IMG/VR virus record: IMGVR_UViG_2778261223_000006
Location: 1-6,761 of that record
Strand: one strand, 5' to 3'
DNA: 6,761 bases
Source: a virus
Taxonomy: Duplodnaviria; Heunggongvirae; Uroviricota; Caudoviricetes
Part shown: piece by piece, positions 1 through 6,761 of the stretch
Numbering within the stretch: the first letter of the stretch is position 1
Layout of the letters: each line of letters starts with the position of its first letter
Position numbers and translations under genes: made by a program
Notes under the pieces: generated by a model
What the model was told of the DNA's origin: nothing
What the model saw: only the letters and a program-made list of their open reading frames with translations
Databases searched by the model: none

Positions 1-251
1 TGCTGCTTTAATGCTGCGGTAAACACACACTTCCAGCTTTCTGCATCCAGCCAGCGACCATGCCATTCAACCTGACGAGAGACGTCACCAAGGCAAGCCC
101 AAAGCTTTCGGTTTTGGTCTAAGCTGCGGTTGCGTTCCTGAATGGTTACTACGATTGGTTTGATTGGGTCTGGAAGGATTTGCTGGATAGCTTGAATGGC
201 GTTCTGCTGATGGATGGGGCTTCTTAGTTCAAACGTTAGTTTCCTCACCAT
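1..251 (-). CDS. ninB: NinB (Orf-family recombination mediator), N-terminal ~83 codons; gene continues past the left edge of the window
   Basis: Minus-strand translation from ATG at 251 gives MVRKLTFELRSPIHQQNAIQAIQQILPDPIKPIVVTIQERNRSLDQNRKLWACLGDVSRQVEWHGRWLDAESWKCVFTAALKQQ..., which matches my recollection of lambda NinB almost residue for residue. SD AGGAG lies 5 nt upstream of the ATG. Not in the ORF track because it is truncated by the window edge. Confidence 0.85.
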   Translation of the reverse strand, partial: MVRKLTFELRSPIHQQNAIQAIQQILPDPIKPIVVTIQERNRSLDQNRKLWACLGDVSRQVEWHGRWLDAESWKCVFTAALKQ

Positions 252-393
252 TTACGCTCCTGTAATCGTCAAGTGCAGCTGCAATAGTCCCTATCGGGTC
301 ATGGTCTTGCCCGATAATCTCATTTACGTTTTCATCTTCTTCCACACCGAAAAAGAATCGCAGGGCTAACATGATTTCTTCGTATGCGCTCAT
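229..393 (-). CDS. Hypothetical small acidic protein (54 aa)
   Basis: Translated by hand: MSAYEEIMLALRFFFGVEEDENVNEIIGQDHDPIGTIAAALDDYRSVNGEETNV. Strong SD AAGGAG 5 nt upstream of the ATG, which sits 2 nt after the stop of the upstream 104-aa ORF. Its 3' end overlaps the ninB start by about 23 nt in another frame. No recognisable family. Confidence 0.5.
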   Translation of the reverse strand: MSAYEEIMLALRFFFGVEEDENVNEIIGQDHDPIGTIAAALDDYRSVNGEETNV

Positions 394-395
394 AC

Positions 396-710
396 TCACT
401 CCTTCACTTTGACTCCAGCAGCGCGGATGTTTTCCTCATAAGCATCCATTGCATCACCGAAGCCATTGGAATAATCAACAGAAAACCCTTTGGCTAATGC
501 TTCTCTGCTGTCGATAAACTTTGGCGCGGTTATTTCAATAGCTGCTCGCGATGCATGCCATAAAGCCCACCACTCATTTAAGGAGTGACGAATATCCATG
601 CTTGAAAATGCAAAGTACCTATCACCATTTCTTGCCTCGGTTATCATCTCGAATGGTAATCTCAATTTTTTGGCAACGTATTCCTCAAACTGCTTTCTTG
701 ATTCGTCCAT
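396..710 (-). CDS. Hypothetical phage protein (104 aa), nin-region accessory gene
   Basis: ORF-track ORF with ATG start and SD GAGGGT about 9 nt upstream. Compact operon spacing with flanking genes. No family recognised from memory. Confidence 0.65.
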   Translation of the reverse strand: MDESRKQFEEYVAKKLRLPFEMITEARNGDRYFAFSSMDIRHSLNEWWALWHASRAAIEITAPKFIDSREALAKGFSVDYSNGFGDAMDAYEENIRAAGVKVKE

Positions 711-727
711 CGATACTTACCCTCAGT

Positions 728-934
728 TCAACTCACAAAACGCCACGCCATTTTTGCTACAGCGACAGGCATAACACCGATAATCACCCAGACAAATGCA
801 GCGCCAAACAACGTATACCATGGGTCTTTACCGTCATTCACAAGACGAATGTAGCTATGCAGAACAATAAAAAACGTCAGAAGAATCCATCCAACGCCAA
901 CGCATTTGAGTGCGACGAGCATAAACTCAGCCAC
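728..934 (-). CDS. Small hydrophobic membrane protein (68 aa, about 2 predicted TM helices)
   Basis: ORF-track ORF, GTG start preceded by strong SD GGGGGAGAG about 6 nt upstream; an in-frame ATG 4 codons downstream is an alternative start. Two long hydrophobic stretches (LVALKCVGVGWILLTFFIVL and LFGAAFVWVIIGVMPVAVA). Confidence 0.55.
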   Translation of the reverse strand: MAEFMLVALKCVGVGWILLTFFIVLHSYIRLVNDGKDPWYTLFGAAFVWVIIGVMPVAVAKMAWRFVS

Positions 935-949
935 GATTTACTCTCCCCC

Positions 950-981
950 AAATAAAAAGGCCTGCGATTACCAGCAGGCCT
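950..981 (-). terminator. Rho-independent terminator downstream of the helicase gene (tR2-like position)
   Basis: Perfect 8-bp GC-rich inverted repeat aggcctgc (958-965) / gcaggcct (974-981) with 8-nt loop. On the minus-strand transcript it is followed by UUUUUAUUU (complement of 949-957). Confidence 0.6.
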
Positions 982-1009
982 GTTACAAGCTCAGTGATGT
1001 AGATGGTCA

Positions 1010-2446
1010 TCAGAATCCTCCTTTCTTCTTGGATTGCGGTTCCTCGCGTTCACGGCGGCGCATTTCAGCGGACTGTTGGTCTGTGTCATAAATAGCGCCA
1101 TTTGCCTGAATGCAATACACCGTGCCGGTATTGCCATGACGATTGAGACGAAGGATTAGTTCGGTTTCACCAGGTGGAACACTGTCATCAAAAGCACCTT
1201 CACGATGGATCCCCACCCAATAATCGCAATCCTGTTCAATCTGCCCTGTATCTCGTGAGTCACTTGGTAATGGGCGTTTATTGGTTCTGCTTTCCAGTGC
1301 GCGGTTAAGCTGCGTCAGAAGCACAACAACGCAATCAAGCTCTTTGGCAAGGTTCTTCAGTCCTTTGGTGATCATGCCGTAAGCAAGGTCGTTGCGATCG
1401 GCCTTCTCAGCAGTCATTAGTGTCAGGTAATCGACCAGAATCATGCCAACACATCCTTTTTCTCGCTTGATTCGACGACTTTCGCTGACGATTTGAGCCA
1501 GAGATAATCCCGGCGTGTCGTCGATGTAAAGCAGGTCGATTTCACTCAAGCGATTGGCTGTTTCGATCGCCCTGTTGAAGTCACCATCGTAATCACCCTG
1601 ATAGCCGTCATCAGCGTCATTTGTCGCCGGAAGGTAAAAAATATTCGGGTTAACACCTGACTTCTGTCCTACCAGTTTTTCCAGTATCTGGTCACCGGGC
1701 ATTTCAAGGCTGAACATCAGAGCGGGCTTTTTCTCATGCACTGCGCAGTTGATTGCCATCTGGCTGTATAGCGTCGTTTTCCCCATCTTAGGGCGAGCGC
1801 CAATGACAAACAGAGAGCCTTTCACCAGACCTTTCGGTGACAGCATCCTGTCCAGCGATGGGATCCCTGTGCTCATTCCTCGTTGTTCGCCTGACGGGTC
1901 AAATCGCTTCTCAAGGTCGCTAACCCAGTCTTCCATGACCTCACCAAATGAGCGAAGGCCGCGACGCGATCCGGTTTTTGCATGGTCTGTCAGTTGCGTA
2001 AAAATCGCCTGAATAGCTTCGTACTTCTGCGTCGCAGTCATTCCGTTGCGGGAATAGAGCAATTCCGTCGCTTCAGTCATGCGGTTGATGGCGTAGCGTT
2101 CCATTGCGGTTTCACGAACCTGCATTGCATAGGCAACGATGTTTGCTGCGCTTGGCGTGTTCTTTGCGATCTCAGCGATATAAGCAAAACCGCCAACAGA
2201 CGCCGTTAACGATTTACGCTCCAGTTCATCGAAAAGCGTCAGGCCATCTACTGGCTTTTGCTCCCGGTGCATTCTGGTTATTTCTTCGAAAAGGATTTTG
2301 TGTGGTCGGCTGTAAAATGAATCAGGCTTCAGCATCGCCAGAACTTTCTGGACGCGCTCACTGCTGTCATCATCCAGAAGCAATCCACCAATCACCGCCT
2401 GCTCTGCCTCGATGCTATGGGGCGGCGCATAAAAATTATCGGTCAT
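1010..2446 (-). CDS. dnaB: Replicative DNA helicase, DnaB family
   Basis: Near-colinear with E. coli DnaB as I recall it: N-terminal PHSIEAEQAVIGGLLLD, FAYIAEIAKNTPSAANIVAYA, Walker A GARPKMGKTT, and LTQLNR...RPLPSDSRDTGQIEQDCD. The track ORF starts at a GTG at 2461; I prefer the ATG at 2446 (MTDNFYAPPHS...), which has SD GAGG about 10 nt upstream. Confidence 0.93.
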   Translation of the reverse strand: MTDNFYAPPHSIEAEQAVIGGLLLDDDSSERVQKVLAMLKPDSFYSRPHKILFEEITRMHREQKPVDGLTLFDELERKSLTASVGGFAYIAEIAKNTPSAANIVAYAMQVRETAMERYAINRMTEATELLYSRNGMTATQKYEAIQAIFTQLTDHAKTGSRRGLRSFGEVMEDWVSDLEKRFDPSGEQRGMSTGIPSLDRMLSPKGLVKGSLFVIGARPKMGKTTLYSQMAINCAVHEKKPALMFSLEMPGDQILEKLVGQKSGVNPNIFYLPATNDADDGYQGDYDGDFNRAIETANRLSEIDLLYIDDTPGLSLAQIVSESRRIKREKGCVGMILVDYLTLMTAEKADRNDLAYGMITKGLKNLAKELDCVVVLLTQLNRALESRTNKRPLPSDSRDTGQIEQDCDYWVGIHREGAFDDSVPPGETELILRLNRHGNTGTVYCIQANGAIYDTDQQSAEMRRREREEPQSKKKGGF

Positions 2447-3326
2447 CGTGTTCACCCTCACGAACTTTCAGGTAGGTATTATCGTTAAGCAGGAAATCAA
2501 ATCCCTTTTTGTGCCAGACGGTTCCGCGTTGATGGTTTGGGCGCTCTTCGAACATCCATCGGCAATTTTCGCCAACGTAGCTCAAATAATTTCTCCAGTC
2601 CTGCATCGTGAACCCATGCCCGTCAAGTTGGCGTGTTATTACTCCGGCTTTGCGCCAGAACGTTCGGATCTGGTTTTTACGCTTGTCATTCAGTGCGCGG
2701 ATTCTTGGCGCTTCAGGAAGGATTTCGTGGTAAGCATCGACAACATCCTGACAGCTGACGGAAGGTTTTTTCTTGTCAGACTTTTTGTCTGCTGTGGCAC
2801 TCTCTAATACGTCAGTATTAGAGATATTATTTATATTATTGTTTATGGACAACCGTTGGACAACCGTTGGACAATCTCCGCTGAGAGCCGCGCCATTACT
2901 GGTGTTTGCGTTGGACAACCGTTGGACAACCGTTGGACAATTTTTTGCCTGAAAATCGTCATATTTAACGATTGTAAACAGGCTAAATTTCTTCCCCATC
3001 GAGCAAATATTAAGCATCCCTTTCGACTCAAAAGTCCGTAATAAGCTCCGAACTTTGTTGTCGGGGATGAATGTTTCTCTGACCAGCGACGGGCGTCCAG
3101 TTATCATCTGACCGCGATCAACAGTTATCGGCCCGATATCCGTATTGACGACAGTAGATTCGTGATTAGCCTTGAGGATTAAGTGAAGCCAAAGATGTAC
3201 TGCCTGAGAGTCCTTATAGAGCCTGCTGTCCATAAACTGGCGGTGTATAGAGACATACCCCATACTGGATGCCTCCTGATGTTGTACAGGGTTATGCCTG
3301 TAATCAGCTAACTTAACGACGCCCAT
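2436..3326 (-). CDS. O: Phage replication initiation protein (lambda O-like origin-binding protein) with the origin embedded in its coding sequence
   Basis: Sits between cII and the helicase as in lambdoid replication modules. Contains internal iterons plus an AT-rich tract (2810-2940), encoding a repeated CPTVVQRLS linker peptide. SD AGGAG 6-7 nt upstream of the ATG at 3326. Sequence family not confirmed from memory. Confidence 0.75.
   Translation of the reverse strand: MGVVKLADYRHNPVQHQEASSMGYVSIHRQFMDSRLYKDSQAVHLWLHLILKANHESTVVNTDIGPITVDRGQMITGRPSLVRETFIPDNKVRSLLRTFESKGMLNICSMGKKFSLFTIVKYDDFQAKNCPTVVQRLSNANTSNGAALSGDCPTVVQRLSINNNINNISNTDVLESATADKKSDKKKPSVSCQDVVDAYHEILPEAPRIRALNDKRKNQIRTFWRKAGVITRQLDGHGFTMQDWRNYLSYVGENCRWMFEERPNHQRGTVWHKKGFDFLLNDNTYLKVREGEHDDR
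2810..2845. other. AT-rich DNA-unwinding region of the replication origin, adjacent to the iterons
   Basis: Sequence tacgtcagtattagagatattatttatattattgtttat is strongly AT-rich within an otherwise balanced coding region. It lies immediately downstream (in gene orientation) of the iterons, as in lambda ori. Confidence 0.6.
2846..2874. repeat. Origin iteron cluster 1: tandem 11-bp direct repeats ccgttggacaa (two full units and one partial)
   Basis: Direct read: tggacaa (2846-2852), ccgttggacaa (2853-2863), ccgttggacaa (2864-2874). Lies inside the O-like gene. Confidence 0.8.
2909..2940. repeat. Origin iteron cluster 2: three tandem copies of (c)cgttggacaa
   Basis: Direct read: cgttggacaa (2909-2918), ccgttggacaa (2919-2929), ccgttggacaa (2930-2940). 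Separated from cluster 1 by a 34-bp spacer. Confidence 0.8.
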
Positions 3327-3474
3327 GCTTCACTCCTGCTTTGGCTAGTCTGTAAACACCAACAAGGCGCTCTGCGAACGCCCTGTTATTTGCTGCGGCT
3401 ACCACTAATCCCTCAGGTGAATCAGGGTGTCGAATCTCTTCTTTTTCCTGGTATTTCTTACGACGTTTTGTCAT
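3313..3474 (-). CDS. Hypothetical small basic protein (53 aa) between cII and the O-like gene
   Basis: Translated by hand: MTKRRKKYQEKEEIRHPDSPEGLVVAAANNRAFAERLVGVYRLAKAGVKHGRR. Strong SD AGGAG 5 nt upstream of the ATG at 3474. Stop overlaps the start of the O-like gene by 14 nt. Absent from the ORF track (below its length cutoff). Confidence 0.5.
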   Translation of the reverse strand: MTKRRKKYQEKEEIRHPDSPEGLVVAAANNRAFAERLVGVYRLAKAGVKHGRR

Positions 3475-3508
3475 AATTACTCCTGTGGATTGATCCAGTC
3501 TTTCTACA

Positions 3509-3787
3509 TCAGGCCTCGAAGAATTCGCCGTTCTTCGGGGCTTTTTCTTTTGTCAGCATTCTGGCTACTTTCTTAGCCAGTTCCGCCAACTCCTCGTCTT
3601 CAACACCCCATTCAAGAACAGCAAGAAGCATTCCCATTTTGGGGATGAAGCTGTCTTTCCATCGCGAAATTTGCGATTCATTAATCCCTAACGCGTCGGC
3701 AACCTTTCGCTGACCACGTACAGCAATTCGATTCAGGATGTTGCTTGTAATTGCATTCGCTTTCTTGCGAGTACTTGTAAGTTGCAT
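3509..3787 (-). CDS. cII: Transcriptional activator CII
   Basis: The core SQISRWK...IPK...MLLAVLEWGVEDEE aligns with lambda CII (SQISRWKRDWIPKFSMLLAVLEWGVVDDD). The RBS/start context TTAAGGAAATACTTACATATG is lambda-like. Position directly downstream of cro and nutR. Confidence 0.9.
   Translation of the reverse strand: MQLTSTRKKANAITSNILNRIAVRGQRKVADALGINESQISRWKDSFIPKMGMLLAVLEWGVEDEELAELAKKVARMLTKEKAPKNGEFFEA
3741..3754 (+). promoter_or_regulatory. Candidate CII-binding box (TTGC-N6-TTGC) of a PRE-like promoter reading towards cro/cI, inside the 5' end of cII
   Basis: TTGC ttgtaa TTGC read on the plus strand at 3741-3754, antisense to cII codons about 11-15. Lambda PRE has the same TTGC-N6-TTGC architecture within the cII N-terminal coding region. 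No clear -10 identified. Confidence 0.35.
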
Positions 3788-3844
3788 ATGTAAGTATTTC
3801 CTTAACTAATAAGAAGTTATGCGCATCAACTTATGCGCGTTGTA

Positions 3845-3889
3845 TTCCCGCATTTCGGCGGGAATGAGGACCATGACTGTTAAAGAGCG
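3845..3889 (-). promoter_or_regulatory. nutR site: boxA (complement of 3878-3889, CGCTCTTTAACA) and boxB hairpin (complement of 3845-3863)
   Basis: Minus-strand boxA matches the boxA consensus. The boxB hairpin sequence ucccgccgaaaugcgggaa is identical to the nutL boxB at 5544-5562. Lies between cro and cII as in lambda. Confidence 0.7.
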
Positions 3890-3895
3890 GTGTTA

Positions 3896-4090
3896 CTATT
3901 TGTTTTTCTTGTTGCTTGGGAAAGGACGAACTTCCTCTCCAATCACACTGCCATCAGGCTTTACCGTAACCATAATGTTACGGCCTGCCAGAATGGCCTT
4001 GCTGATAGCGCACTGGATTACACCAAAGTCACTGGCTGCTTTAGCCTGTCCATGGATTTTGGCGTAATCGGCAAGTGTCATTCGAATCAT
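3896..4090 (-). CDS. cro: Cro repressor
   Basis: [64 protein letters not shown] aligns along its length with lambda Cro ([63 protein letters not shown]). The track begins at a GTG at 4096; I prefer the ATG at 4090, which has SD GGAG 7-8 nt upstream. Confidence 0.9.
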
Positions 4091-4119
4091 ATGCACTCTC
4101 CGTTATTAACCATGAACAA

Positions 4120-4148
4120 AGAATACTACAGGTATTCAAAGCAATCAA
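4120..4148 (-). promoter_or_regulatory. PR-like promoter for cro: -35 TTGATT (complement of 4143-4148), 17-bp spacer, -10 TATTCT (complement of 4120-4125)
   Basis: Read on the minus strand. The -10 hexamer is identical to the PL -10. Both hexamers overlap the operator palindromes. Confidence 0.6.
4121..4137. promoter_or_regulatory. Operator OR1-like site, GAATACtacagGTATTC
   Basis: 17-bp site with perfectly symmetric 6-bp arms GAATAC/GTATTC. Overlaps the PR -10. Confidence 0.6.
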
Positions 4149-4162
4149 TACTCAGGGTATTT
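4146..4162. promoter_or_regulatory. Operator OR2-like site, cAATACtcaggGTATTt
   Basis: Symmetric arms AATAC/GTATT. Overlaps the PR -35. Closely related to the OL site at 5432-5448. Confidence 0.55.
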
Positions 4163-4196
4163 TTAGTTTAAGTACCTTAGCTATTAGAATTAAGCT
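4162..4196 (+). promoter_or_regulatory. PRM-like promoter for a leaderless cI transcript: -10 TAGAAT at 4185-4190, poor -35 TTTAGT at 4162-4167
   Basis: TAGAAT ends 6 nt before the cI ATG (4197) and there is no SD upstream of cI, as for lambda PRM/cI. A possible degenerate third operator lies at about 4170-4187. Confidence 0.5.
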
Positions 4197-4913
4197 ATGG
4201 AAAATAAAAAATCACTGACGACAGAACAGCTCGAAGACGCTAAGCGGCTTAAGGCTTTGTATGAGTCAAAAAAGAAAGAATTGGGAATAACCCAATACTC
4301 AATCGCTGATGAACTGGGTATCACCCAAGGAGCGGTAGGGCATTATCTTAATGGCAGAAACGCGCTAAACGTTGAGGTCGCATCTGGTTTTGCACGTTTG
4401 TTGCAAGTCTCAATTGCTGATTTTAGCCAGTCAATTGCTGCCAAGGTTGCAGAACAGGCAGAAAGCCTTAAGAGCGATGCCAACGTAAGGTATGCAGGGG
4501 AATACAGAGCAGGAAAGAGGTATCCGGTGTTAAGCAGTATCCAGGCTGGCTCGTGGTGTGAAGCATGCGAACCATACACCATTAAAGACATAGATGTTTG
4601 GCTTGAGTCTGACGCGCATATTCAAGGTAATGCGTTCTGGCTTAAAGTGGAAGGTGATTCAATGACGGCACCGGTTGGGTTAAGCATTCCAGAGGGAACA
4701 TTCGTTCTTTTCGATACCGGAAGGGAGGCGATCAACGGCAGCTTGGTCATAGCAAAACTTTCTGACTCTAACGAAGCAACATTCAAGAAGCTGATAATCG
4801 ACGGCGGAAATAAATACCTCAAGGGACTTAACCCTGCATGGCCTCTCGTGCCAATCAATGGAAACTGCAAGATTATAGGCGTTGCAATTGAGACAAAACT
4901 AAGGCTGGTTTGA
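4197..4913 (+). CDS. cI: CI repressor (HTH DNA-binding domain plus S24 LexA-like autopeptidase domain)
   Basis: N-terminus LTTEQLEDAKRLKALYESKKKELG matches lambda CI ([24 protein letters not shown]), with a divergent recognition helix. Ala-Gly cleavage site (IQAGSW), catalytic Ser (VEGDSMTAP) and Lys (ATFKKLI) motifs are present. Confidence 0.95.
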   Translation: MENKKSLTTEQLEDAKRLKALYESKKKELGITQYSIADELGITQGAVGHYLNGRNALNVEVASGFARLLQVSIADFSQSIAAKVAEQAESLKSDANVRYAGEYRAGKRYPVLSSIQAGSWCEACEPYTIKDIDVWLESDAHIQGNAFWLKVEGDSMTAPVGLSIPEGTFVLFDTGREAINGSLVIAKLSDSNEATFKKLIIDGGNKYLKGLNPAWPLVPINGNCKIIGVAIETKLRLV

Positions 4914-4932
4914 TCACGCAAGGGGGACGCTT

Positions 4933-5301
4933 ATGGTTGGAACCGCTATAGCAAGCTTTTTTGGGATGTTGGCAATCTCAACAATTTACGGCTTAGCGCA
5001 TGCTTTTATTGCGAAATCTCTATCAGAAAAAATAAGCCAGGCTTGGGCGCATAGATCAGCTCGTTTCATGATTCTAGTGGTCATAGCAATACAAGGGATA
5101 TCTGCATTTATCCTCTATGGATCAAGCTTATACCTGTTGTATCAAGGCGCGACATTTACGCCTTACACCAGTGATTACGGAACTCTATACGATGGTAGTG
5201 AAGACATCTCTATGGCTTGGATCGTCTTTGGTTTATCTGTGGCCGTGTCTGTTGTAGCAGACATCATTAAGGTAATTCTCGTCTTAACCTTCGCTGACTA
5301 A
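4933..5301 (+). CDS. Integral membrane protein (122 aa, about 3 TM helices) co-transcribed with cI; candidate lysogen-expressed exclusion/defence protein in the rex position
   Basis: ATG lies 19 nt after the cI stop, with SD AAGGGGGA between. Three long hydrophobic segments (residues about 5-27, 45-70, 95-120). Occupies the slot between cI and OL/PL that holds rexA/rexB in lambda. No family recognised. Confidence 0.75.
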   Translation: MVGTAIASFFGMLAISTIYGLAHAFIAKSLSEKISQAWAHRSARFMILVVIAIQGISAFILYGSSLYLLYQGATFTPYTSDYGTLYDGSEDISMAWIVFGLSVAVSVVADIIKVILVLTFAD

Positions 5302-5431
5302 CCCATAATCCCGGCAGCAATAGCTATCGGGATCCACTTCACATATCCCGCATAAAAAGCACTGAACAAGCAGATACCGAAAAAATAAATATCCTTTGTA
5401 TTCATCTGTTTATCATTATTTCATCAAAAAT

Positions 5432-5473
5432 AAATACCCTGGGTATTTACACAATAAAATACCTACAGTATTC
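5432..5473. promoter_or_regulatory. OL operators: AAATACCCtGGGTATTT (5432-5448, perfect 8-bp arms) and AAATACCtacagTATTC (5457-5473)
   Basis: Palindromes read directly. Same ATAC...GTAT half-site family as the OR sites. They overlap the PL hexamers. Confidence 0.65.
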
Positions 5474-5474
5474 T
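5446..5474 (+). promoter_or_regulatory. PL-like promoter: -35 TTTACA (5446-5451), 17-bp spacer, -10 TATTCT (5469-5474)
   Basis: Hexamers with canonical spacing, overlapped by the OL palindromes. About 190 nt upstream of the N-like gene. Confidence 0.6.
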
Positions 5475-5520
5475 TTAGCCATCAGCAGGACGCTGGTAGC
5501 CAAACGGAACAGATTGGCAG

Positions 5521-5562
5521 GCTCTTTAACATTGATGGGATTGTCCCGCCGAAATGCGGGAA
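5521..5562 (+). promoter_or_regulatory. nutL site: boxA GCTCTTTAACA (5521-5531) and boxB hairpin tcccgccgaaatgcgggaa (5544-5562)
   Basis: boxA matches the boxA consensus. boxB is identical to the inferred nutR boxB. boxA-boxB spacing is 12 nt here and 14 nt at nutR. Confidence 0.7.
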
Positions 5563-5668
5563 CCAAAGAGTAGTTGGCTTTGGGGTGATGTGAAGTGCAG
5601 CTGCACGACGGCAACCGGAAGATAAGCACCCGGCGCGTCACCGCCAAAGTCAATCATCGGAGGTCAAC

Positions 5669-5941
5669 ATGACAGTAGTCATTACATATCTGGCTGACGA
5701 TAACGCCAGAAATCGCCGCAGAGCACGCAGACAGGCTCAACGTGAACAGGCAATGCAAGAACAGCGACTGGCGCGAAAAATTGCGCTAAAGCTCTCTGGT
5801 TGCGTCAGAGCAGATAAAGCAGCATCACTCGGAAGCCTTCGCTGCAAGAAGGCAGATGAATGCAGTGGAAGTATTTGCCTGCCAAACGTAGCTATTTACG
5901 CGGCAGGCTACCGGAAATCAAAACAACTGACGGCGAGATGA
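5669..5941 (+). CDS. N: N-like transcription antitermination protein (90 aa) with N-terminal arginine-rich motif
   Basis: First gene downstream of PL/nutL. Arginine-rich motif DNARNRRRARRQAQREQ near the N-terminus, as in lambdoid N proteins that bind boxB. SD GGAGG 4 nt upstream of the ATG. Confidence 0.65.
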   Translation: MTVVITYLADDNARNRRRARRQAQREQAMQEQRLARKIALKLSGCVRADKAASLGSLRCKKADECSGSICLPNVAIYAAGYRKSKQLTAR

Positions 5942-5957
5942 TAAATTAATTTGCTAA

Positions 5958-6539
5958 TTACTTGTTTTTGCCGTGCTTATCCTGAGCGATAAGTTCATCC
6001 ATAAGACTGTCTTTCTTCCCAGCAAACCTAATGTAGCACTCATTTCTATAGCGTTCTGGGATAACAAAACGGTCGATTTCAGGATATCCAGTAGCAGAAG
6101 GTATCCGAATAAGAAGCCCTTTTTCGAGCAATGAGATTGCTTCAGGGCTTCCCTTTTCCGTTTGTAGCTGGTTATTAGCGACTACAGCGAGTGCCAAATA
6201 CGCTCTTTCTCCAAGAGTTAACGAATCAAACAAATCTTGCACGTATTTCTCTTCTTTAGATTTGCGCTTCTGAGCAGCGAATACCTCAATTCTTTCAGTC
6301 ACAGCGTGATAAGCGGAATTAACAACGCCGTTAAGCACATAGCTAACGCAAAACAACAGGATGTAATACATCCAGTAATGAGGAAGGATTTCTGGATTAT
6401 GCAGGTTTATCCATTCTTTTACGCTTACCGGCATAACAATAATCAATATGATCAGGATGATTAGCATATGAATCAACTGTTTAAGTGTCATTCCTTGCAG
6501 GAAAAAATGCATTAGTTCCTGCCACCATGAGTTGTTCAT
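5958..6539 (-). CDS. sieB: Superinfection exclusion protein B-like membrane protein (193 aa)
   Basis: Convergent with N, as sieB is in lambda/P22. N-terminal hydrophobic TM segments (LIHMLIILIILIIVMPV, YWMYYILLFCVSYVL). The sequence matches my recollection of lambdoid SieB but this is unverified. Confidence 0.65.
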   Translation of the reverse strand: MNNSWWQELMHFFLQGMTLKQLIHMLIILIILIIVMPVSVKEWINLHNPEILPHYWMYYILLFCVSYVLNGVVNSAYHAVTERIEVFAAQKRKSKEEKYVQDLFDSLTLGERAYLALAVVANNQLQTEKGSPEAISLLEKGLLIRIPSATGYPEIDRFVIPERYRNECYIRFAGKKDSLMDELIAQDKHGKNK

Positions 6540-6761
6540 CGGCGTTTCTCTTTTGCTCTCTGTAGGGGTGAATAGAGTTTATCCGATTTCTCGCTTGAGC
6601 TGGCCCCCTGAAATACCAGACAGTAGATGTATCTTAAAATAAGAGATAGGCTTGGATATATGTCTAACACTAGTTCTAATTTTGGTAAGCGTAAACTGAC
6701 CGCCGTATGTAGCCATCAGACGAGAATTGGTAACTTAGACGCCCATCTGATATAGACGGAC

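Follow-up and report, generated by a model that had tools for sequence, protein, structure and literature searches.

We analysed a 6,761-nt stretch of tailed-phage DNA (Caudoviricetes; IMG/VR record IMGVR_UViG_2778261223_000006, positions 1–6,761), hereafter the window, with a focus on two convergent genes at 5669–6539 that encode an N-family antiterminator and a homolog of the superinfection exclusion protein SieB. It spans the immunity and early region of a lambdoid prophage. With a probability of roughly 0.88, the span of interest is the start of the operon of the early leftward promoter, PL, in a prophage with HK140/HK620-type immunity, together with an exclusion gene lying antisense to that operon. 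Under this reading, loss of repressor would allow PL (~5446–5474) to transcribe nutL and then N, the arginine-rich N-terminus of which would bind boxB and make RNA polymerase terminator-resistant on both early operons, a mechanism that we infer from the family to which N belongs and from the pair of nut sites. The sieB gene would be an abortive-infection gene of the P22 type, transcribed in the lysogen from its own promoter in opposition to PL, and would yield full-length SieB as well as a shorter product, Esc, that starts at Met25 and neutralises SieB. An antisense RNA like sas of P22 would cover the SieB start and shift translation to Esc, such that the phage escapes its own exclusion. The Esc/sas part of this scheme follows the literature on P22 and its GenBank annotation; its elements are conserved in the window, where activity is assumed by analogy. 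In the window copy, insertion sequences (ISs) have taken away the sieB promoter's −35 element along with the 3' half of sas, and have separated N and sieB from whatever is left of the PL operon.

An N-family antiterminator gene converges on a P22-type sieB

Coordinates throughout are window positions (1–6,761), and the gene order was defined by the open reading frame (ORF) list and family scans. The two ORFs lie exactly where the initial annotation, made from the letters alone, had placed them: a 90-aa ORF at 5669..5941 on the plus strand and a 193-aa ORF at 5958..6539 on the minus strand, both starting with ATG. The 16 bp that it had counted between their convergent stop codons were likewise recovered (TGA at 5939–5941 for N, and TAA, on the complement, at 5958–5960 for sieB), and the intervening AT-rich 16-nt spacer (5942–5957) reads TAAATTAATTTGCTAA. 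On sequence evidence, both are real genes rather than chance ORFs, because their Pfam scores exceed the curated cut-offs, the exact SieB protein is present in the public collection, and the pair recurs in related loci.

The 90-aa product, initially described as N-like, matched the Pfam family N_peptide (PF25694) over residues 11–90 with 58.4 bits against a cut-off of 27.9 (E-value 1.1e-15), and also phrog_271, "anti-termination protein N-like" (4e-34). An arginine-rich motif at residues 12–27 (NARNRRRARRQAQREQ) aligns with those of P22 gp24 and lambda N, basic residues outnumber acidic ones (20 K+R vs 7 D+E), and the C-terminal motif YAAG.RKSKQ.TAR is common to the window protein and P22 gp24. 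Amino acid identity was 98% to HK140 N, 43% to P22 gp24 and 20% to lambda N. Sequence comparison of the protein with PDB identified no matching solved structure, as matches were at chance level only. Overall, these similarities support its assignment as an N-family antiterminator.

The 193-aa product, encoded at 5958–6539 on the minus strand and named sieB-like at the outset, matched the Pfam family SieB (PF14163) with 85.4 bits (cut-off 26), and phrog_1301 over its full length (residues 1–193, 1.6e-122). The similarity to SieB that this name presupposed was therefore found, both as the family match and as 83% identity to P22 SieB; identity was 98% to HK140 SieB and 26% to that of lambda. Searching the database retrieved 118 homologs; PF14163 is present in each of them except for three short fragments, and many carry the name superinfection exclusion protein B. 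The public collection lists the exact window protein in 167 blocks. Family, full-length and pairwise matches together support its identification as a SieB of the P22 type.

The convergent layout is shared widely. Among 90 related loci with the same or a close SieB, an N homolog converges on sieB in 88, and in the other two, which lack a visible N, the locus sequence ends right after sieB. The gap between the two genes is 16 nt in 81 loci, 15 nt in six and 12 nt in one. In lambda (NC_001416), sieB (34482–35036) and N (35037–35438, complement) abut with a 0-nt gap, and in P22 gene 24 and sieB converge across 20 nt. Because the arrangement is common to lambda, P22 and 88 of the 90 related loci, it is the canonical lambda/P22 layout and is not peculiar to the window. 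The N/sieB module is in fact a textbook feature of lambda and P22 that has been known for decades, and the same proteins are already annotated in RefSeq and phage records. A shared terminator within the 16-nt gap was considered and rejected, given that the intrinsic-terminator scan was negative and only a weak long-range hairpin (5930–5975) was predicted.

The N-sieB pair was found beside several combinations of repressor and accessory genes, implying that the two genes move together as a mosaic module. N can also occur without sieB. In Escherichia coli strain 631, the immunity region and N are those of the window, but a 120-aa gene reading in the same direction as N takes the place of sieB, and homology breaks off at the N stop codon (window 5937–5941; 8663–9300 in the strain 631 locus, L100). 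Phage L is likewise without sieB (PMC8022706). In other relatives, homology breaks within N, at ~5860.

Control sites place N first in the early-left operon

N is the first gene of a repressor-controlled early-left operon, in which operators, a PL candidate, nutL and then N follow one another. Matches to the 15-bp operator sequence AATACNNNNNGTATT number six in the window vs 0.23 expected, a count reached in none of 200 shuffles, and five of the six sit in two regions flanking cI. Three are at the left operators, OL (5388–5402 with one mismatch, 5433–5447 and 5458–5472), and two are at the right operators, OR, on the cro side (4122–4136 and 4147–4161). A consensus scan located the PL candidate on the plus strand at 5446–5474 (TTTACA, a 17-nt spacer and TATTCT), where it overlaps two operators and would act as the promoter.

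Downstream of this candidate, nutL (5521–5561, plus strand) consists of boxA (GCTCTTTAAC, 5521–5530) and a boxB hairpin (TCCCGCCGAAATGCGGGA, 5544–5561), with 13 nt between the two. The second site, nutR (3888–3846, minus strand), is found downstream of cro, with boxA at 3888–3879 and boxB at 3863–3846. Both boxA and the 18-nt boxB are identical in nutL and nutR. The 18-nt boxB occurs exactly twice, none of 200 shuffles gave any match to it, and it is predicted to fold into a hairpin with a 6-bp stem. The HK140 record marks boxA at both of the equivalent places.

The N gene is preceded by a ribosome-binding site, GGAGG, at 5659–5663. Between nutL and this site, a hairpin is predicted on the plus strand at 5573–5654 (−42.7 kcal/mol, z −2.8), and two of 200 shuffles folded as well. 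The leader of lambda N is structured, forming a hairpin, and by analogy the predicted structure at 5573–5654 may be its counterpart. An Rfam search at E<=1 assigned no RNA family in the window.

Comparison with HK140, P22 and lambda

HK140 (JQ086370) shares 97.5% nucleotide identity with the window over 5300–6595. Its N and its superinfection exclusion protein are each 98% identical to the window proteins, and the two phages have the same cI, the same 122-aa gene downstream of it, the same annotated boxA positions and HK620-type immunity. Unlike the window, HK140 has an intact sieB upstream region that is followed by ral. Its replication genes are lambda-type O and P, whereas the window carries an O-like gene and a DnaB-like helicase gene.

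In P22 (NC_002371, BK000583), gene 24 and sieB have the same order and orientation as the window pair, and P22 SieB has 192 aa compared with 193 aa in the window. The two differ at few nucleotides in the sieB leader, transcription start and −10 region and share the Esc start at codon 25, whereas the immunity region, operators and boxB are of a different type. In the window, unlike P22, IS DNA stands in place of the −35 of the sieB promoter and of 65 of the 127 nt of sas, and the visible DNA contains neither ral nor the remainder of the early-left operon.

Lambda and the window both have N and sieB tail to tail, downstream of PL, OL and nutL. They differ between cI and PL, a place taken by rexA and rexB in lambda and by the gene for an unrelated 122-aa membrane protein in the window. 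The position is shared (downstream of cI, on the same strand and upstream of OL/PL), yet rexAB is a two-gene system and the window has a single small protein without sequence similarity to it.

The Esc start and the antisense RNA sas

The initial annotation had noted that lambda sieB encodes an in-frame product, Esc, and had proposed a search for internal starts in the window gene. The first point is stated in a paper on lambda, in which Esc inhibits SieB (PMC3224144), and lambda SieB has a methionine aligned with Met25 of the window protein. In the P22 GenBank record, esc starts at codon 25 of sieB, with the sieB promoter and RNA start placed upstream. The P22 esc start maps onto window position 6467, and the SieB ATG is at 6539. 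The search recovered a predicted Esc frame of 169 aa on the minus strand (5958–6467) that begins at the in-frame Met25 (ATG at 6467–6465), and this methionine is conserved in 23 of 24 homologs, at identities down to 36%. A separate internal promoter for Esc at 6491–6463 (minus strand) was discarded: the scan gave two sites vs 3.7 expected by chance, and the transcription start would fall past Met25.

The 127-nt sequence of P22 sas has been given in a 2026 small-RNA study (PMC13397905, Table 2). Mapped onto the locus, sas begins opposite the sieB start codon, on the antisense strand, and covers the leader, the promoter and ~65 nt further. The window retains the first 62 of the 127 nt as a remnant on the plus strand (6535–6595). 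The second hairpin predicted in sas is split by the IS junction, and the folding z-scores of sas were non-significant. Details of the P22 promoter and the origin of sas are drawn from GenBank annotation and secondary papers.

Codons 1–25 of sieB contained zero substitutions, synonymous ones included, among 26 distinct alleles, and the 100 nt upstream of the gene are near-invariant in ~90 loci (L007–L096), with only the window diverging. This absence of substitutions, together with the near-invariant upstream 100 nt, suggests that the sieB start region (6465–6595) is under a constraint at the RNA level that would be tied to sas and the two start codons. Variation in sieB climbs steadily deeper into the gene. 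We also observed a direct repeat, ACCCCTACAG(C/A)GAG, in wild-type sieB control regions, with one copy in the promoter and one at the transcription start (1693–1706 and 1728–1741 in the P22 locus, L004; 6556–6569 in the window). Each copy lies in a predicted sas hairpin, and the IS junction leaves the last 3 nt of the first copy.

Nested insertion sequences at the sieB promoter

Homology to phage and E. coli DNA ends at 6595 in every match to the region, and the window diverges from other loci at −56 from the sieB ATG and −26 from the predicted transcription start. The remnant of the sieB 5' control region (6540–6595, minus strand) comprises the 30-nt leader, the predicted transcription start (6569) and the promoter's −10 part. 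The end of the P22 promoter feature maps to 6576, and nothing is kept upstream of −26. Accordingly, the 3' 20 nt of the 31-nt P22-type promoter feature are retained and the first 11 nt (TGTACCCCTAC), including the −35, are replaced.

The replacing DNA begins with 88 nt on the plus strand (6596–6683) that correspond to the left end of an IS3-family element (terminal repeat and leader). In another E. coli genome (locus L099), the same 88-nt end is followed by an orfA fragment that matches HTH_Tnp_1 (PF01527; 29.3 bits, cut-off 24.1), a matching inverted repeat is present at the far end of the element, and the Prokaryotic Genome Annotation Pipeline (PGAP) labels the remainder as an IS3 family transposase with programmed frameshift. 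Two other assignments of 6596–6683 were set aside. An IS2-like end, the first guess, was superseded, and the left end of ISCro1 (IS66 family), as annotated in locus L005, was rejected given that L099 shows an IS3-family element split by ISCro1. The rest of the window (6684–6761, plus strand) corresponds to the left end of an IS66-family element of the ISEc23 type, which starts with GTAAGCG at 6685 and within which the window ends. It is 100% identical to DNA upstream of tnpA-tnpB-transposase units annotated as IS66-like/ISEc23. As the ISEc23-type end sits within the IS3-family end, one IS has inserted into another.

Neither the phage/IS junction nor the IS3/IS66 junction had an exact match in species-representative genomes, and the phage/IS junction was not covered by any complete E. 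coli genome. Given this absence from the genomes searched, the insertion looks like a strain-specific event. The nested ISs in the sieB promoter and sas are the sole unusual element of the locus, apparently a strain-level accident, with a regulatory consequence that is plausible. Other prophages offer several related observations. In one (L010, 2571–3748), an IS3-family transposase gene ends 244 nt upstream of sieB, and in another (L098, 3538–5954) an ISEc23 element lies just downstream of ral; IS insertions in the early-left operon seem to be recurrent and independent among prophages with this sieB. In E. coli CE10, downstream of dsdA (L097, 3001–3129), the same IS3-type end is followed by an ISEc23-like end joined 14 nt earlier, which suggests that IS66-type elements have inserted repeatedly into this IS3-type end.

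In the window, the ISs separate N and sieB from the genes that come next in relatives (ral, cIII, kil and those for recombination). In a crude scan, the 166 nt of visible IS DNA showed no promoter-like site directed towards sieB (minus strand). With the promoter −35 and half of sas lost, native sieB expression and the escape switch would be impaired, and native control of the window copy has probably been lost with the ORF left intact. However, several points weigh against our overall reading, and against this part of it in particular. The −10 region, transcription start and leader are unchanged, and even the native −35 (TGTACC in P22) resembles the consensus poorly, such that the promoter may retain some activity. 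The visible DNA stops within the IS, which leaves the remainder of the PL operon beyond view. Moreover, the Shine-Dalgarno sequence that the initial annotation had proposed to look for with an internal start was not recognisable before Met25, and the PADLOC and NCBIfam models gave no match for either N or SieB.

A stronger version of the same account, which refines it rather than replacing it, is that sieB is transcriptionally silent and stranded in a defective prophage, with both exclusion and the Esc/sas escape lost. We regard this as a tentative possibility that falls somewhat short of being probable. It would fit the position of the IS junction at −26 from the mapped start, with 11 nt of the P22 promoter feature gone, and the lack of any minus-strand promoter-like site in the visible IS DNA. 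The nesting of the ISs suggests a region that is not under strong selection, and the independent early-left insertions in L010 and L098 point the same way. On the other hand, the ORF is intact and identical to the protein found in the 167 public-collection blocks, the start codons are unchanged along with the retained promoter and leader elements, and the insertion is possibly recent. The promoter scan also carries limited weight in this respect, as by our reading the native promoter hexamers, too, are too weak for it.

Convergence as a possible regulatory device

A different view is that the tail-to-tail placement is itself a regulatory device, in which N-antiterminated PL transcripts run antisense through sieB. 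Read-through from PL would hinder sieB transcription and supply the antisense RNA for the switch from SieB to Esc, and it would matter that the gap between the genes is free of terminators. In favour of this view, the scan returned no plus-strand intrinsic terminator within the gap or close to it, and sas, which spans the sieB start, has the same sense as PL transcripts. The layout is kept in lambda, P22 and 88 of the 90 related loci, and the nucleotide sequence does not vary at the sieB 5' end and hardly varies over the 100 nt preceding it. However, the sequence of the gap differs among lambda, P22 and the window phage and is therefore not conserved, and sieB is exchangeable at the N stop codon (strain 631) or missing altogether (phage L, PMC8022706), which indicates that N is independent of the convergent arrangement. 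The sas region is, furthermore, truncated in the window copy. Weighing both sides, we consider it unlikely that the placement serves this purpose.

Predicted architecture of SieB

An AlphaFold2 model of SieB, built with 24 homologs, had a mean predicted local distance difference test (pLDDT) score of 79, with lower values for residues 1–60 and ~90 in the C-terminal part. The N-terminal third is hydrophobic and helical, with a predicted N-terminal membrane segment, and is followed in the model by a long helix (residues 56–105) and then by a compact winged-helix-like domain at ~106–175. Across the 24 homologs, residues 1–66 are near-invariant and the C-terminal domain is variable. Comparison of the SieB sequence with PDB gave chance-level matches only. 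One interpretation of the model is that SieB is a membrane-tethered winged-helix protein in which residues 1–66 would act as the effector of cell shutdown and ~106–175 as a sensor for some component of a superinfecting phage, and that Esc, which lacks only residues 1–24, would be dominant-negative. We offer this as a speculation that is more probably wrong than right by a wide measure. If it were true, the ISs would leave the SieB system without its native promoter or its antisense escape switch, and sieB could then be dead, or else have become an exclusion gene that is domesticated and misregulated.

The cI-linked gene and other features of the window

On the other side of PL, the gene for a 122-aa hydrophobic protein (4933–5301, plus strand) starts 19 nt after cI and has its own Shine-Dalgarno sequence (AAGGGGGA). 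The protein has approximately three hydrophobic segments and belongs to phrog_6534, a family of unknown function, and a stable hairpin lies 3' of the gene (5308–5333, z −3.6). Searches of PADLOC, NCBIfam and PDB yielded no match to the protein, and its Pfam match was sub-threshold (19.2 bits vs a cut-off of 27.3). In other immunity types, different genes occupy the cI-linked slot, for example those for a 347-aa CbiA/AAA_31 protein or a 348-aa protein.

The initial annotation had suggested that this gene and sieB give the prophage two membrane-associated exclusion candidates flanking PL. That idea held for SieB, through its family, and did not extend to the 122-aa protein, which has no similarity to known exclusion or defence proteins. 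Its candidacy is one of position only. A second exclusion function in a rexAB-like position, with two systems flanking PL, would be in keeping with a gene that follows cI by 19 nt on the same strand with a strong Shine-Dalgarno sequence of its own and a stable hairpin after it, with the hydrophobic segments of the product, and with a slot whose content varies with immunity type, as is typical of accessory "moron" positions. However, the protein showed no significant similarity to RexA, RexB or entries in PADLOC, NCBIfam or PDB, its sole Pfam match is sub-threshold, its PHROG is functionally uncharacterised, and position is insufficient to show function. By this analogy to rexAB, a second exclusion system appears decidedly improbable. 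Least credible of all is the notion that the 90-aa ORF encodes a small basic protein of unrelated function, which could appeal to the mere 20% identity to lambda N and the lack of a matching solved structure, and against which stand the above-threshold N_peptide match, the strong PHROG match, the place of the ORF as first gene after PL, and paired identical nut sites positioned exactly as in lambda and P22.

The remaining genes of the immunity and early region are, on the minus strand, those for a DnaB-like helicase (1010–2461) and an O-like initiator (2436–3326), followed by cII (3509–3787) and cro (3896–4096), and, on the plus strand, cI (4197–4913). Within the O-like gene (2835–2952), the 11-bp sequence TGGACAACCGT occurs in two clusters of three copies each, 66 nt apart. 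These clusters look like origin iterons, and the repeats encode the repeated peptide CPTVVQRLS.

Implications

The N/sieB module, first recognised from sequence only, was confirmed by this analysis, and the significance of the locus is otherwise small. The window copy, in which the sieB coding region is parted from its promoter −35 and from half of sas, could serve as a natural mutant for probing the role of these elements. The predicted winged-helix C-terminal domain, together with the nucleotide-invariant 5' end of sieB, would provide testable handles on how SieB works.

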